NCBI GenBank assembly: GCA_964477715.1
Contig: CAYZEC010000006.1
Span: 1 to 36,171 of the forward strand
DNA from: an uncultured Candidatus Saccharibacteria bacterium
GTDB lineage: Bacteria; Patescibacteriota; Minisyncoccia; Minisyncoccales; UBA1441
Direction: 5' to 3'
DNA length: 36,171 nt
Positions 26,881 through 31,953 of this stretch are shown here, one piece after another; the stretch's first letter is position 1; every line of letters starts with the position of its first letter. The notes beneath the pieces were generated by a model. It had not been told where the DNA came from. It saw only the letters and a list, made by a program, of their open reading frames with translations, and searched no databases. The position numbers and the translations under genes are program-made.

Positions 26881-27007
26881 ATTTTTTTCTCAGATGTTTT
26901 AATTTTATCTTTCTGATTATTAATGATAATCGTGGCACACATTATAAGATCTCGCTTGGCGGAATGGCTTTTGAGGCGAATTACTAAGAATATTCATGAC
27001 AAAGAAA

Positions 27008-27070
27008 ACAAAAACCCGAGATATTGTCTCGGGTTGCTCGGCTCTGGGAATGCAGCAAAGCTAGAACCTG
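27008..27070. repeat. junction J5 (attR-like): hairpin + GCTCT-N14-GCTAGAAC
   Basis: AACCCGAG-ATATTGT-CTCGGGTT, core at 27041, second box at 27060. Confidence 0.8.
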
Positions 27071-27122
27071 TTTTTGAAAAATAGGACGGGGACCGGGCCA
27101 CTCTGGCCTGATCCCCCGTAGT

Positions 27123-27333
27123 TCAATAACTTCCTTCGCCGACTCTCCATCCCGTCGGAAGATAAGTGTTTTTCTTCGCCATCGCAATCTTGTCTGGATG
27201 CTTGGGCGTTAGCGTGACTCGCAGACCCTCTTCTTCTGGAGTAAGGGGACCTCGTCATCTCTTCACGAGACTGACCTCTTTCCTCCGACGCATGATCGCA
27301 GTACGCTTTGCCACATGCAGGACACAGGCTCCT
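27123..27333 (-). pseudogene. decayed small Zn-finger-like gene
   Basis: TTGACA at 27394, SD AAAGGAG, AGG where ATG is expected, then SLCPACGKAYCDHASEERGQSREEMTR, +1 frameshift, PLTPEEEG...GEGSY stop, then a terminator. Confidence 0.6.
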
Positions 27334-27416
27334 CTGAGTTTCTCCTTTTCTCTGGGATAATCATGTCTCTGGCATTTAACTTGCAAACTGTCAAACCGCC
27401 TCCGGAAAAATACTAT

Positions 27417-27458
27417 TGGCTCCCCCTATTAGATGAAGTTCGAACTTATTTTGCTTAA
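27417..27458. repeat. junction J4: TGGCTCC-N14-GTTCGAAC
   Basis: Core at 27419, box at 27438; + strand reads WLPLLDEVRTYFA-stop. Confidence 0.75.
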
Positions 27459-27937
27459 AATGAAAAATCTGGAAACCCTTCCAACGTTCTGTCTAATAAT
27501 ATAAATGCTTGTAATCCTGTCTCAAATTCAAAAGATATATCTCCGCTATCTAATACAGATGCGTCTTTAATTATAGGCTGTTCCTTGAGCCACTGTACTG
27601 TTATATCAGTTGCATTAGAATCTCCTTGGTCTTTTAGGTCAGTAAACATGCTGTTGGCGTCTTCTATAGTCTGGAGTATTAACTCTGCTTCTTCTTCTGT
27701 CATTTCTCTAAATTCTTCTTCATCTTTATTTATAATAGGCGTTTCTGTATTGTCTATAATCTCGGGCTCTATAACAGTATAATCATCCTTATGATCGTCA
27801 TCTTGATTATTTTCAATGGAAACTTCCTCTTGAATTGAATTATTATCATTCAATACCCAAAAACCCGATAACCCTAACACGCCCATAATAATTATTGTTA
27901 TTACTGAAAATAATAGTATATATTTGTTAGCTATCAT
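27455..27937 (-). CDS. acidic membrane-anchored hypothetical protein
   Basis: N-terminal TM, acidic body, TGGTATAAT extended -10 at 27961-27969; the stop abuts junction J4. Confidence 0.75.
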   Translation of the reverse strand: MIANKYILLFSVITIIIMGVLGLSGFWVLNDNNSIQEEVSIENNQDDDHKDDYTVIEPEIIDNTETPIINKDEEEFREMTEEEAELILQTIEDANSMFTDLKDQGDSNATDITVQWLKEQPIIKDASVLDSGDISFEFETGLQAFILLDRTLEGFPDFSF

Positions 27938-28037
27938 TACTTTATATAAATAATTTATTTATTATACCAAAAAATCTCAATCGGTTCAAGCATGGAATAC
28001 AACTTACTTGGGGCTCTATGAATAAAAAAGTCTGAAA

Positions 28038-28140
28038 CAGCTCCGTATCGTGAACAACGCTAGAACCAAGATGGAAGGGGAAAATGAGCATATTTACATC
28101 TCAGATTTGCAAGAATGCGCTAATGCATAAACCTACCCTG
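28038..28140. repeat. junction J3: GCTCC-N14-GCTAGAAC plus ~100-bp tail
   Basis: Core at 28040, box at 28059; tail aligns ungapped with 29580-29682. Confidence 0.8.
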
Positions 28141-28153
28141 TCGGGCAGGATCA

Positions 28154-28927
28154 CTACAAATATTTTTTAATTTTTTTTAAGTATAAATTATTAAGACCGC
28201 CAAGTCTGAAAATTGCAATAGAATCAATTTTATTTTCTTTACAAAAAAATAAATCTTCATCCAGATTTTCGGGTTTTAAGATTGGTTCATTCCCAAAAAT
28301 CCCGATCGCAATAGTGCCTAAACCAATCTGGAGATTTTTACCCAATTCTAAAGAACGCTTAGCTATATCTTTTTTTATTTTTTCCAAAAGAAATTTATTT
28401 TTAATCATACTTGAATAAAACATTACTATCTTTTTATGAGGATATTTCTCGATAGGATAAGAAATACCTAGCCACTCAAATTTCTTTTGAATTATTTTAC
28501 TTGGAATTGGGTATTCAAAAACTAAGATTTGGATATTTAATTTTTTTGAATCTGTAAAAATTTTCCTAATAATTTTTTTGTTTTTGAAAAAAGAAAACAG
28601 ATTCCAGAAAAATAATTTTGGAGTCAAAAAAGGAAGTTCCAAATCAATCAAAATTTTTAAATATTTATCTTTTTTATTTTTGAGCAAATCATCATATAGC
28701 TTTCTTAATTCAAAAGTATATGAGAACGGCGAAATCCAATAAGATTTTTCTAGAATTGGCCAATATCCTAATTCGACCGTTGAATTAATCTCTAAAATTT
28801 TATCTTTAATAATGTTAAATTCTTCTAAAGACTTGGCAGCTATATAGATTAGTGAAGGAAAATTTATTAGGTTCAGTTTCGCCAAACTTTCCTCATTAGG
28901 AAATTCCTCAAAAAAATTAATCTCCAT
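28154..28927 (-). CDS. hypothetical protein
   Basis: 257-aa, very AT-rich ORF; ELGYWPILEKSYWISPFS...GLGTIAIG...IAIFRLGG; family not recognised. Confidence 0.75.
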   Translation of the reverse strand: MEINFFEEFPNEESLAKLNLINFPSLIYIAAKSLEEFNIIKDKILEINSTVELGYWPILEKSYWISPFSYTFELRKLYDDLLKNKKDKYLKILIDLELPFLTPKLFFWNLFSFFKNKKIIRKIFTDSKKLNIQILVFEYPIPSKIIQKKFEWLGISYPIEKYPHKKIVMFYSSMIKNKFLLEKIKKDIAKRSLELGKNLQIGLGTIAIGIFGNEPILKPENLDEDLFFCKENKIDSIAIFRLGGLNNLYLKKIKKYL

Positions 28928-29013
28928 AAATTAAAAATAATTAAGATATGTGAGTATTGTCTCGGTTAATCGGAACTAACTCGTTATTATGCGAACTCCA
29001 CAGTTTAAATGCA

Positions 29014-29282
29014 CTATTTATAGACGCTTCCTCTCCAATCGATCTGCTCTACAAGAACAACCGAGTTCTCGAAATCAAATTCAATCAGTAAACGCAATTT
29101 ACCACTTCGAAGGCGATAGAAACCCTTCCACTCTCCCTTTAATTTTTGATGTCAATATTAAGATCTTCTCCGTCAAAAAAACGAATGGATCTTCGGACAA
29201 GTTCCTGTATTTTTTCTATTGCTATCTGGTTTTTAACTGAAAATCTCTCTGAATCTTTAGAAAAATACAATTTCCAAGACAT
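29014..29282 (-). pseudogene. RelE/ParE-family toxin with frameshift
   Basis: MSWKLYFSKDSERF...NIDIK, one base missing in the A-run at about 29143-29147, then KLKGEWKGFYRLRSGKLRLLIEFD...IDWRGSVYK. Confidence 0.85.
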
Positions 29283-29285
29283 GTT

Positions 29286-29474
29286 TCAAAGAGGATGACT
29301 CTTGGACTTTTGGCGAGAGGGCTTGCCATACCTTTTTTCAATATCTTTCTGCTCTCGCTCAGAAACATCAGACAAAGACAAAGCCCTGAGCTTCATGAGC
29401 TCCGAAGTCAAAACCTCGCGCACGCTTTCTTTAATAAGTCCTTTTAATTTTTTCTCAGAAACATTGGCATTCAT
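29286..29474 (-). CDS. putative antitoxin
   Basis: MNANVSEKKLKGLIKESVREVL...VSEREQKDIEKRYGKP, ending 3 nt before the toxin ATG; start chosen at ATG 29474. Confidence 0.7.
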   Translation of the reverse strand: MNANVSEKKLKGLIKESVREVLTSELMKLRALSLSDVSEREQKDIEKRYGKPSRQKSKSHPL

Positions 29475-29550
29475 TACCTGCATATTACTATATAGAAATA
29501 CCTCGGTCAATTGCTCAATCACCTGACGATACCCTAAAAGTAAACGCTAC

Positions 29551-29682
29551 AAAAAACCGAGATATTATCTCGGGCTGCCCTGCTCCCCATTGTGAACAAT
29601 GTTAGGACCAAGATAGAAGGGGAAAATGAGTATATTTGTATTCCTGATTTAAAAGAATGCGCTAATATGTAAACTTATCCCA
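29551..29682. repeat. junction J2: hairpin + GCTCC-N14-GTTAGGAC plus tail
   Basis: CCGAG-ATATTAT-CTCGG, core at 29582, box at 29601. Confidence 0.8.
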
Positions 29683-29857
29683 CCCCGCTAATCACTATAT
29701 ATCATTATTAGAAAATCAAGAAAATATCTCTGTTATTTCAATTCGCTCTGGCCTGTTCCGGGGGTTAGCAGAACCTAAACCCGTCCGAGAAAGAAACAAA
29801 AGTTTCCTCGAAAACACTAAATAACTTGACAAAATGCTACGATGGTAATATCCTGTA

Positions 29858-29914
29858 ATTAGAATTCACAGGAAAAAGCACCTCTTAAGGTTTTGTCCTT
29901 CTGCGGTGCTTTTT
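29858..29914 (+). ncRNA. candidate short RNA convergent on the NYN gene
   Basis: TTGACA at 29826 with -10 candidates TAATAT/TATCCT; stem AAAAAGCACC/GGTGCTTTTT enclosing AAGG/CCTT. Confidence 0.35.
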
Positions 29915-30414
29915 CATTTTAGCTTTCTCTGGTATCCCAGCTTTTTCTGCAGATTGTTGATAAAAACAATTTTTTCTTTGGCTGATTTTTTTATCAAGCT
30001 GGAACAGGTTTCGCTATAAGGGCTGATTACGCGTTCAAGCTTGTTTTTGCCATAAAGATACTTGATCAAAGAATAGAAATCTCCATCGCTGGAAATAATT
30101 ACTGCTTTATCGTAATTATCAAGATCAATCATCGCTTGAAGAACAAGATCGGCATCTATATTACCCTTTATATTCCCGTCACTATCGGGAATAGTCGGTT
30201 TGAATATTAGAACATAGCCTGCTTTTTGCAGGAAAGAATAAATGTCTTGATTTCCGGAAACATAACCAATGAAATAATAAGCTGTTGTTACAGCATATTT
30301 TTCCTTGAGATATCTGCGAAAACGAATAAAATCCAATCTCCAGCCCAGACTTTGGATTCCAAGATGAAGATTCTGCCCATCGATAAAGGCATAATTCTTT
30401 TCTCTTTTATTCAT
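29914..30414 (-). CDS. NYN (PIN-like, LabA/DUF88) domain protein
   Basis: AFIDGQNL, KGNIDADL, IISSDGDFYSL. Confidence 0.92.
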   Translation of the reverse strand: MNKREKNYAFIDGQNLHLGIQSLGWRLDFIRFRRYLKEKYAVTTAYYFIGYVSGNQDIYSFLQKAGYVLIFKPTIPDSDGNIKGNIDADLVLQAMIDLDNYDKAVIISSDGDFYSLIKYLYGKNKLERVISPYSETCSSLIKKSAKEKIVFINNLQKKLGYQRKLK

Positions 30415-30425
30415 ATTTTCAGTAT

Positions 30426-30497
30426 ATTATAACACAAAAAACCCGAGAAAATGCTCGGGTTTTCAATGCTCCGGGAATGCGACAAAGTTCGAACCTG
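30426..30497. repeat. junction J1: extended -10 + hairpin + GCTCC-N14-GTTCGAAC
   Basis: AAAACCCGAG-AAAATG-CTCGGGTTTT, core at 30468, box at 30487; TGTTATAAT on the - strand at 30434-30426. Confidence 0.8.
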
Positions 30498-30559
30498 CTG
30501 ACAATGAATCATAGAAAATCTGTAGCCGAATAAGATCAGCCTATCGACTGAATAACAAG

Positions 30560-30763
30560 CTAGAACGGTAATAAAGATGGGGAAAAAATACGAACCGATA
30601 AAAGCACAACTAAGAAAACGATGAAAAGGAATAGGGATGCGCCCACGGCAAAACCAAAACCCACTTTAATTGTCTCCTAGAAGGAGATACTTATTTTGAT
30701 CTGATCTTTTTCTGAATTAGAAAAATCATTTTCAGTGGAAATCGATAAATCCTTGTTTTCCAT
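30560..30763 (-). pseudogene. small single-TM protein with premature stop
   Basis: MENKDLS...KISISF*ETIKVGFGFAVGASLFLFIVFLVVLLSVRIFSPSLLPF; in-frame TAG at 30679-30677 (possibly from TGG). Confidence 0.6.
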
Positions 30764-30770
30764 ATATTAA

Positions 30771-31319
30771 TTAGTTGATGTTCTCACTTAGTTTGTTTCT
30801 TTGGTCAAGAAATCCATCGACTAGGCCAGAGATTTCTATGAGGCCATAAGATTGCCCAGCTCTTACGCGTAGGATGGATAAGCCTGCCGAACCTAGAGCC
30901 ATGTCAACGAAACTATCTCTTTTTTTAACATTTTCTTTGCTGTGGCTTGAGTCATCTAGCTCTACCACTAAAAGGGGTCTTATTTTCACTTTATCGCAAA
31001 GCAAAAAATCTACATGTCTTGATTTTATTCTCTGGCGCAAAGCAAATCTTTCCTTTGAAGTTACTCCTTTTGGGATCCAGAGCAAGTCTTCTAGGCGCAC
31101 TTTCGCAAACAATAGAAGATCCTTTTTCGCGGCAACTTCCTTTAAAACGTCATAGAAATTCTTTTCAGCAATAGATAAAAGATAGTCTTTTTTTCTATAT
31201 GGATAAGACTTTGATTCCTTTTTAGAAGAAAATAGCTTGCCCTCGTAAGCGGAAAAAGCAATTATTGCAAAAATTATGATTAGTAATATTATTAATGGCT
31301 TCATATTATTATTTGCCAA
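30771..31319 (-). CDS. DUF2726-domain protein
   Basis: LLSIAEKNFY, FAKVRLEDLL, HVDFLLCD, VELDDSSH, RDSFVD. Confidence 0.9.
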   Translation of the reverse strand: MANNNMKPLIILLIIIFAIIAFSAYEGKLFSSKKESKSYPYRKKDYLLSIAEKNFYDVLKEVAAKKDLLLFAKVRLEDLLWIPKGVTSKERFALRQRIKSRHVDFLLCDKVKIRPLLVVELDDSSHSKENVKKRDSFVDMALGSAGLSILRVRAGQSYGLIEISGLVDGFLDQRNKLSENIN

Positions 31320-31367
31320 CTGACTGGCTAATTATGTTTTCACGTATTGAGCGCATTAAATAAAACA

Positions 31368-31757
31368 TCATGATTTTCCAAAATTATTCAGCTTAAAAGA
31401 TATCTCATAAATATAAACCTCAACATTTGCCAGCATTTCTTGGGCATAATCAAATTTTTGATCGTATTGGCCAACGACAATAACCCCCTTAACATTGCTA
31501 TCGTTCTTGTTCTTCTTTATCCACCCCATATATCGTGTTAGCTGTCCAATAGTATCATCGCTTGTTTGTCCTTTTTTAAGCTCAATCACAACATAAGAAC
31601 TGGTTTCTTTGTCTTTCGCCAAGATATCTATTGATCCAATATCTGTCTTATATTGCTGGCTGACCATCTCCCCGTCTTCAATAATCAAATCAAACTTTTT
31701 ACCCAATTCCGTACTCTCCCAATTATGGATCAAGAACTCCTCTAGATGGCTTTCCAT
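31368..31757 (-). CDS. NucS/EndoMS-like PD-(D/E)XK nuclease domain (possibly N-terminally truncated)
   Basis: ESHLEEFL, GSIDILAKD, VVIELKK, GQLTRYMGW, VKGVIV. Confidence 0.85.
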   Translation of the reverse strand: MESHLEEFLIHNWESTELGKKFDLIIEDGEMVSQQYKTDIGSIDILAKDKETSSYVVIELKKGQTSDDTIGQLTRYMGWIKKNKNDSNVKGVIVVGQYDQKFDYAQEMLANVEVYIYEISFKLNNFGKS

Positions 31758-31821
31758 AAATATTTTTGATTACTCTAGATGTATAATAACACAAAAACCA
31801 GAGATATTGTCTCGGGTTGCT

Positions 31822-31896
31822 TGGCTCCGGGGGTCGGACTCGAACCGACAGCCGACGCGTTAACAGCGCGTTGCTCTACCATTGAGCTACCCCGGA
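31822..31896 (-). tRNA. tRNA-Asn(GTT), CCA encoded
   Basis: TCCGGGG/CCCCGGA acceptor, ACGCG-CTGTTAA-CGCGT anticodon arm, GTCGG-TTCGAGT-CCGAC T arm, G-CCA. Confidence 0.97.
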
Positions 31897-31953
31897 ATGT
31901 ATTTAATTTATAGGAGAATGAATATTTTTTCAAGCATTCTTCCTAATTTCAAT

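Follow-up and report, generated by a model that had tools for sequence, protein, structure and literature searches.

Orphan C-terminal tails of large serine recombinases mark a probable pile of decayed insertions at a tRNA-Asn gene in a Patescibacteria genome

In a 36,171-nucleotide stretch of DNA (contig CAYZEC010000006.1 of assembly GCA_964477715.1; hereafter the window) from an uncultured Candidatus Saccharibacteria bacterium, about 4.8 kb of small genes separate tRNA-Asn(GTT) from a housekeeping block, and short orphan peptide frames are scattered among them. We consider it highly probable that this island (27002-31821) represents a decayed stack of insertions at the tRNA gene's 3' end, left by elements that encode large serine recombinases (LSRs). 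The genome, 94.8% complete, comprises 485 kb in 28 contigs, of which the window is C6. The island is bounded by the pair 27002-27048 and 31785-31831, which are 89% identical.

An earlier, sequence-only reading of the window had noticed that every junction reads as a peptide tail, L(P/R/W)xxxx(V/A)RT, and had taken these tails for severed C-termini of a tRNA-targeting recombinase. All five readings were reproduced in place, in frame and on the + strand, as was the antisense reading of tRNA-Asn(GTT), WLRGSDSNRQP, in the register of the tails. The opposition of tails and cargo also held, with 7 of the 8 open reading frames (ORFs) of at least 60 residues between the tails lying on the - strand, the exception being 28989-29240. 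A six-frame translation of the window contains five matches to L[PRW]....[VA]RT, all on the + strand (27042-30469), against a mean of 0.26 and a maximum of 2 in 200 composition-preserving shuffles, and only four scattered matches occur in the other 449 kb of the genome. The five readings lie in short stop-to-stop frames of 22-81 codons, and each junction consists of a hairpin, then GCTC(C/T), then a tail. Two repeat families cover these junctions: D1, a hairpin with the first bases of the tRNA 3' end, has four copies (27010, 29551, 30437 and 31793), and D2 comprises two copies of a 99-base stretch, starting at 28040 and at 29582, that are 80% identical. On the - strand, where tRNA-Asn lies, three hairpins (27013-27035, 29557-29573 and 30437-30464) look like terminators; the copy at 31793-31821 was not detected by the terminator scan.

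The two long tails, which largely coincide with D2, carry a coding signature. Relatives of their DNA were found at 30 places in 26 of the 401 genomes of the order, other families included, and the exact NEYIYIPDL-coding pattern matched 82 stretches in GTDB species genomes, whose record titles are with few exceptions those of Patescibacteria or Parcubacteria-type metagenome-assembled genomes. In aligned copies, similarity begins abruptly at (T)GGCTCC, the antisense of the tRNA ...GGAGCCA end, and extends about 120 bases rightward, where the consensus in the frame proposed by the earlier reading is (W)LRIVNNVRTIxxRQNEYIYIPDLRxYANA-stop. Coding constraint was assessed in 23 of 29 copies, six having been dropped for indels or partial length; because the copies are related, the resulting figures are descriptive and not probabilities, and the genome counts are likewise not independent. 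Column entropy at codon positions 1, 2 and 3 is 0.65, 0.49 and 0.89 (permutation p 0.0056; 23 copies), and the synonymous share of single-base codon differences reaches 0.57 in this frame, as compared to 0.15-0.21 for four of the alternatives and 0.42 for the antisense frame with coincident wobble positions. A single stop interrupts this frame across the 23 copies, against 19-56 in the other frames, and two copies are shorter by exactly one codon. A lack of codon-position bias had been named beforehand, together with the absence of any recombinase ending in such a motif, as fatal to the idea of severed C-termini; in the long-tail copies the bias is strong. This signature, together with the protein ends described below, shows the long tails at 28038-28130 and 29580-29672 to be true coding remnants of LSR genes. 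A non-coding block (..ACTTACCCCACCC.GCTACTCACTATAT..) is also conserved past the stop codon in most copies, lying at 29672-29700 and 28130-28160 in the window; it may be a promoter, or the outer portion of the arm of the element's attachment site (attP).

Candidate donors were sought with a profile of 19 tails against longer proteins (E up to 0.01), which returned 68 matches, of which 24 are 439-637 residues long. All 24 full-length proteins carry a recombinase-family Pfam domain (Resolvase, Recombinase or Zn_ribbon_recom) and have the motif at their extreme C-terminus, ending in ...WL(R)IV(N/D)NVRTIxxRQNEYIYIPDLRxYANA-stop; these are the residues of the tails at 28038 and 29580, and the profile search thereby recovered the ending that the sequence-only reading had predicted for the circular form. 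The shorter matches are mostly fragments with the same end, and P0064 (DUF497) is without the motif. In tblastn and blastx comparisons the long tails are 44-69% identical to LSRs over 26-41 residues. Their proposed donors have the domain order of a large serine recombinase, a Resolvase catalytic domain and then Recombinase and zinc-ribbon domains (PF00239, PF07508 and PF13408; hmmscan of the body in genome G083), and homologues of one of them, P0014, occur in 159 of the 401 genomes. The origin proposed for the tails was borne out for the two long ones, by the 24 LSR ends and the coding bias, and may by analogy extend to the short tails, for which no donor was found.

In other genomes these recombinase genes commonly run into tRNA genes. 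At 24 of the 30 best LSR loci the frame enters the antisense of a tRNA 3' end and finishes in tRNA-coded residues, the targets being tRNA-Asn (6), His (5), Gln (4), Asp (3), Ser (2), Gly (2), Glu (1) and Pro (1). Examples of such ends are ...VRTQWLRG-stop, ...WLPGLDSNQD-stop, ...MLRGKDSNLDR..., ...IRARWLPGLDSNQD-stop and ...MLRGKDSNLDRLDQNQLSYH-stop, with ...CPTWLRGSDSNR at tRNA-Asn in genome G006, in line with the integrated form (WLRGxDSN, tRNA antisense) that had been predicted. Two further LSR frames, L091 and L092 (the latter at a contig end), finish in tRNA-like sequence without a called tRNA, and L090 and L108 retain their own tails, with short ends after RT (...LNDVRTYLL... in L090 and ...NEARTYFSKNV-stop in L108). 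A whole element is present on contig C47 of G083, where about 11 kb separate a tail junction from a 542-codon LSR body that ends ...IRARWLPGLDSNQD-stop in tRNA-Gln(CTG); its cargo comprises a methylase-Mrr fusion, a ClpP-like protease, a DUF5659 protein and unknowns. The two junctions of this element have GCTG in common, which puts the predicted crossover in the W-L codons, the acceptor end of the tRNA; the shared stretch is only 4-5 bases long (GCTG in G083, GCTCC in the window). Body and tail thus lie at opposite ends of the integrated element in G083, and the 24 of 30 bodies that end in a tRNA and the 76 of 78 tails that are orphans show the same split architecture in other genomes. Orphan tails are the rule, since 76 of the 78 tails in GTDB genomes (exact pattern) sit in frames of 14-158 codons, the others ending frames of 525 and 350 codons; a seventy-ninth match (L175) was set aside as a chance hit. 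Similarly, all 29 anchored copies lie in frames of at most 128 codons. On other GTDB contigs, three tails lie within 2 kb (L181-L183) and two lie 1.16 kb apart (L165/L166), so arrays of orphan tails are not peculiar to the window.

We therefore propose the following history for the island. The elements would belong to a Patescibacteria-wide LSR family in which attP lies inside the last ~100 bases of the element's own recombinase gene. The crossover would fall in the W-L codons (TGGCT...), the antisense of the tRNA ...AGCCA 3' end, so integration would split the LSR gene. A body of ~500 codons would be placed beside the tRNA, its frame finishing in tRNA-antisense codons (WLRG..., WLPGLDSN...), and a tail of ~30 codons (IVNNVRTIxxRQNEYIYIPDL...) would be left behind at the element's far end, on the opposite strand from most of the cargo. 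New insertions would enter beside the tRNA and push older units outward, so that each junction would comprise the last codons of an older LSR body, the shared core and the tail of the next element. Every LSR body would since have been deleted from the window, leaving tails, the adjoining cargo (nucleases, an NYN protein and unknowns), and hairpins that would end the tRNA transcript and that resemble the last codons of the older bodies.

This reading of the junctions draws on the terminator-like hairpins of the window, on the hairpins that precede W-L in one LSR clade and on an alignment that crosses a core. In that clade, the other strand of the codons just before W-L (K-T-E-A-L-A-S-V) folds into a hairpin with a T-run, 8-11 bases past the tRNA end, as exemplified by L079-L084, L087, L096, L098 and L100; under a simple rule, a hairpin and T-run were found at 14 of the 24 loci. 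The recombinase gene seems in these cases to carry a terminator for its target tRNA. We compared the clade's hairpins with those of the window (31793-31821, 27010-27038, 29551-29576 and 30437-30465), and found that the one beside tRNA-Asn reads QKPEILSRVA before WLR on the + strand, resembling KTEALASVRAR-WLR, the last codons of the clade. Across the core at 29580, residues 524-564 of P0014 align with 29553-29669 (61% identity, E 8.7e-07). The stretch left of at least this tail looks like an older LSR's last codons and not like plain host DNA, and 29544-29579 is probably, to judge from its translation, the 3'-end remnant of an older LSR body.

Related genomes show the same site in other states. 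In G006, from the same family, the NYN unit with its tail still adjoins tRNA-Asn (88% DNA identity over 525 bases with locus L031, on contig C3). An NYN gene without its first ~42 codons is fused there to an LSR 3' half, from zinc ribbon to C-terminus, which reads ...CPTWLRGSDSNR into tRNA-Asn (L200, C12:11900-13022, taken with L031), and this arrangement captures an LSR body partway through its loss. The window has the nuclease-DUF2726 unit interposed between the NYN unit and tRNA-Asn, which makes that unit probably the newer arrival. G001, from the same genus, has a different 1.46 kb between Obg and tRNA-Asn, with no similarity to the window island and with a hairpin-plus-core at its far end, like the core distal to tRNA-Asn in the window; the tRNA-Asn site is shown by these comparisons to be a variable hotspot. 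The order of insertion and the mechanism by which bodies were lost are what we infer from these states. At another locus (L034, G018:C6), the order is FtsX, tRNA-Gln(CTG), core, an Imm5-like immunity gene, a second core and LemA, a one-gene unit of window-like design. The features of the island are collected in Table 1.

Table 1. Features of the island and its target tRNA (positions in the window)
Feature	Position	Strand	Basis and remarks
Distal copy of the tRNA downstream hairpin, far boundary of the island	27002-27038	-	Repeat comparison, terminator scan
Distal short tail, RLWECSKARTCF-stop	27039-27077	+	Translation; 16/27 bases as in LSR consensus; far end of island
G+C-richer stretch, 0.44-0.51 vs 0.38 for the window	27061-27416	none	No match to LSRs or any family
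Short tail, WLPLLDEVRTYFA-stop	27417-27458	+	Translation; resembles LSR ends like ...LLRMLNDVRTYLL... (L090); putative origin
Cargo, 160-aa ORF	27455-27937	-	No family
Long tail, QLRIVNNARTKMEGENEHIYISDLQECANA-stop (QLRIVNNART...ECANA-stop)	28038-28130	+	Second LSR C-terminus; DNA 80% identical to 29582-29680
Cargo, function unassigned, 257 aa	28154-28927	-	No family above cut-off
Cargo, function unassigned, 83 aa	28989-29240	+	No family above cut-off
Cargo, function unassigned, 78 aa	29286-29522	-	No family above cut-off
Frame TLQKTEILSRAA upstream of the 29580 tail	29544-29579	+	Spans hairpin 29557-29573; aligns with LSR residues KTEALASVRAR
Long tail, LLPIVNNVRTKIEGENEYICIPDLKECANM-stop (LLPIVNNVRT...ECANM-stop)	29580-29672	+	C-terminal 30 codons of an LSR gene; blastx against LSRs
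Cargo, NYN-domain nuclease	29914-30414	-	Pfam E 1.3e-15; DNA identity with L031 88% over 525 bases
Terminator-like hairpin left of the 30466 core	30437-30464	-	Repeat family D1; terminator scan
Short tail, MLRECDKVRTC-stop	30466-30501	+	17/27 bases as in LSR consensus; putative LSR origin
Cargo, DUF2726 protein	30771-31319	-	Pfam E 9.1e-29
Cargo, PD-(D/E)XK nuclease (NucS_C-like)	31368-31757	-	Pfam E 7.6e-16
Hairpin and T-run just downstream of tRNA-Asn	31793-31821	-	Repeat family D1; comparison with LSR 3' ends
tRNA-Asn(GTT), integration target	31822-31896	-	ARAGORN; Rfam tRNA 72.7 bits; antisense WLRGSDSNRQP in the tails' frame (translation)

The three short tails (27039, 27417 and 30466) share with the long ones their place, register and L-x4-[VA]RT pattern, beside GCTCC and a hairpin, and may by this analogy also be of LSR origin. 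The tail at 30466 and the tRNA-Asn 3' end have GCTCCGGG in common, and a tail in another genome (L151) runs ...IPDLGVLDEVRTLLL.... The sequence-only reading had also proposed several donor lineages from at least three tail types; three sequence types were indeed seen, and their tentative assignment to separate lineages draws on these types and on analogy with L090 and L108, donors of the short tails not having been found.

Several results weigh against a pile of LSR insertions. No donor for the EC.K[VA]RTC-coding pattern was found in the 401 genomes beyond the window's own two matches, and a protein search with the 27417 frame returned no candidate donor. The match of the short tails to the LSR consensus (16-17 of 27 bases) is reached at 155 of 968,456 genome positions and is weak for each tail alone. 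No LSR body lies within the island, where blastx against 54 LSRs matched only at the two long tails. The genome's one complete LSR (C23:1590-2984) is without the tail motif and ends 130 bases before tRNA-Gln, so that it is not supported as donor of the island tails, and a second LSR is only a fragment at the end of contig C22. No match to two tail-coding patterns, NEYIYIPDL included, was found among IMG/VR viral contigs, and neither a free circular form nor excision polymorphism was seen there or among the metagenome contigs of four runs. Finally, the G083 element is the only one verified with both ends on one contig. As for the surroundings of the complete LSR, C23:1-3046 holds a GluRS-like fragment, a 208-codon frame, a second, different tRNA-Gln(CTG) and the convergent 464-codon LSR, and another tRNA-Gln(CTG) lies at the start of C13 (C13:61-132).

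The strongest competing explanation, which we nonetheless judge improbable, is that the tails are 5'-truncated pseudogenes of unsplit LSR genes and were not severed by recombination at this site. It draws on the LSR similarity that continues upstream of the core at 29544-29672 (KTEILS--RAA against KTEALASVRAR, 61% over 41 residues) and weakly back to 29496 (E 0.009, small database), and on the G006 LSR, which is eroded from its 5' end. However, in the 29 copies elsewhere similarity reaches no further left than (T)GGCTCC or the bases just right of it, the frames upstream of it are unrelated, and the split form dominates (24 of 30 loci, 76 of 78 tails). An unsplit 3' end within an array is moreover also expected from re-insertion beside an older split body, where the truncation and severing readings overlap.

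Far less credible is that the tails are mere translations of tRNA-derived att repeats, conserved as DNA or RNA and never coding. The cores do have GCTCC and a T-loop-like GTTCGAAC/GCTAGAAC in common with the tRNA antisense, the tail frames are tiny, and for the three short tails only the motif itself argues for coding. For the long tails, by contrast, a single frame shows both the synonymous bias and the freedom from stops, and the residues are the C-termini of 24 full-length LSRs. From GCTCC to the T-loop-like motif the cores have 3 bases more than the tRNA does, no T-stem pairing was seen by eye, and the Rfam tRNA model found no fragment at E up to 5. For the tails at 28038 and 29580 a repeat-only explanation is refuted. 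Displaced tRNA 3' fragments of tyrosine-integrase islands were rejected as well, only GCTCC(GGG) and the downstream hairpin being held in common and the T-arm geometry being absent.

We give almost no credence to the conserved stretch being a functional unit of its own, either a micro-protein starting at the GTG of ..IVNN.. or a - strand RNA in the 3' region of the cargo; it could be transcribed from the - strand ahead of the hairpin terminators, and a conserved non-coding block does follow its stop codon, but there is no Rfam match, the coding signal is on the + strand, the residues end proteins of ~550 residues, and neither a conserved start codon nor a ribosome-binding site was seen upstream of the tails. 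On similar grounds (no Rfam match, no T-arm pairing by eye, + strand coding signal) the cores were dismissed as tRNA halves or as a - strand RNA gene, and integron attC sites were dismissed with no integron integrase nearby (only a PF00589 gene on C11) and with cores (GTTAGGA, GTTCGAA, GCTAGAA) that misfit GTTRRRY.

Insertion piles with split LSR genes, our preferred explanation, have partial counterparts elsewhere. When SSV1 or Mx8 inserts into a tRNA gene, its integrase gene is split or acquires a different C-terminus. According to the Islander paper (PMC4383910), Mx8 and SSV integrases 'extend across attP'. The likeness is that attP lies within the integrase's own frame; the difference is that those enzymes are tyrosine recombinases, whereas these are LSRs (PF00239, PF07508, PF13408). 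The Patescibacteria LSRs thus appear to work like the SSV1/Mx8 type without being members of it, membership being defined by a tyrosine recombinase. In mycobacteriophages BPs and relatives, attP lies in the repressor gene's 3' end, and integration at a tRNA removes C-terminal residues, so that the repressor loses an ssrA-like degradation tag; the integrase is of the tyrosine family, and mycobacteriophage tyrosine integrases exclusively use tRNA sites (PMC9262239). There too, tRNA integration trims the C-terminus of an element gene, which is the repressor in those phages and the recombinase itself here.

Among phage LSRs, the A118/LI integrase, SPbeta SprA and TP901-1 have the same domain order as P0014. 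Its nearest relatives of solved structure are SprA (9dxh), matched at residues 11-194 with E 4.2e-12, and the C-terminal domain of the A118 integrase (4kis), matched at residues 211-450 with E 5e-09. Unlike those enzymes, the Patescibacteria LSRs target tRNA 3' ends, and the matches end at residue 450 of 564, so that the last ~114 residues, tail included, lie beyond the matched solved structures and are peculiar to this family. Tandem tRNA islands built by accretion, and cis-mobilizable elements without a recombinase, are concepts from work on tyrosine-integrase islands and streptococcal elements. The window resembles such arrays in having several units at one tRNA, att-like repeats as bounds, the newest unit beside the tRNA and no recombinase left, and differs in that its repeats would be serine recombinase gene ends. 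It likewise resembles integron cassette arrays in its short units of one to three genes, mostly in one orientation, with repeated sites between them; the differences are the lack of an integron integrase nearby (the genome's single Phage_integrase-family gene is on C11), cores that misfit the integron consensus, and repeats that are coding remnants.

No description of tRNA-targeting or self-splitting LSRs, or of LSRs in Patescibacteria, was found in full-text searches of the open-access literature, and nothing on tRNA-targeting or self-splitting LSRs was found in PMC12884075. The results point to a widespread variant of site-specific integration that has apparently gone undescribed. If the proposal is true, tRNA-gene targeting and the design in which the integrase gene crosses attP would extend to serine recombinases, and orphan tails would be a simple marker for mapping where elements once inserted in Patescibacteria, whose genomes are tiny and poorly understood. 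Because short sites suffice for LSRs and host factors are not required, enzymes directed at conserved tRNA ends could also help DNA insertion in organisms without genetic tools.

A further idea, which we offer tentatively and hold to be somewhat doubtful, is that self-splitting is a built-in switch of a Patescibacteria-wide LSR family that has come to occupy the tRNA-gene niche thought to belong to tyrosine integrases, integration swapping the tail and so altering the activity, direction or stability of the enzyme. Only the free circular element would then encode the full enzyme with its 30-residue tail, and integration would replace this tail by the few residues that the tRNA codes for. If another element inserted beside an older body, a chimeric full-length gene would be rebuilt, and in one clade the gene's last codons would double as the terminator of the target tRNA on the other strand. 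Tail ends are often ..YANA, ..YSNA or ..YADA (P0006-P0063), and the genome's own transfer-messenger RNA tag (C19:564-859) ends ..PAYAYA. A role of the LSR tail as degradation tag is conceivable; only 8 of 21 full-length LSR ends fit the ssrA-like pattern [YF]x[ND][ASTVL].

Around the island, tRNA-Asn(GTT) lies just downstream of dnaG and rpoD, and the housekeeping block on the other side comprises Obg, a cold-shock protein, a Phd-like antitoxin and a zinc-finger protein. The island genes encode a NucS_C-like PD-(D/E)XK nuclease, a DUF2726 protein, an NYN nuclease and four ORFs without a family; the first of these matches the C-terminal half of the defence candidate PDC-S02 (PADLOC E 8.8e-45). 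We compared 26900-31950 with metagenome contigs (contigs only) from four runs, two of which may be the source of the assembly; parts of the region were uncovered in X3 and X4. Each junction is crossed by at least one contig, which gives no independent support since the runs may be the assembly's own source, and none of the contigs from the four runs joins any two cores. A 184-base skip at 28178-28363 in two of the runs, with a short side of 21, is probably from another organism.

Two further observations concern other parts of the island. The motif CTCTGGCCTG(A/T)TCC, at 27105 in the G+C-richer stretch, recurs at 29748 (29748-29790), where it is conserved in G006 (L031). A strong hairpin with a T-run (29860-29919, -22.1 kcal/mol) follows a promoter-like TTGACA-17-TATCCT on the + strand (29826-29854). 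This hairpin is single-copy in the genome, yet short contigs in the four metagenome runs carry it at 4-15x the surrounding depth; it may be a small RNA or a terminator module of wide distribution.

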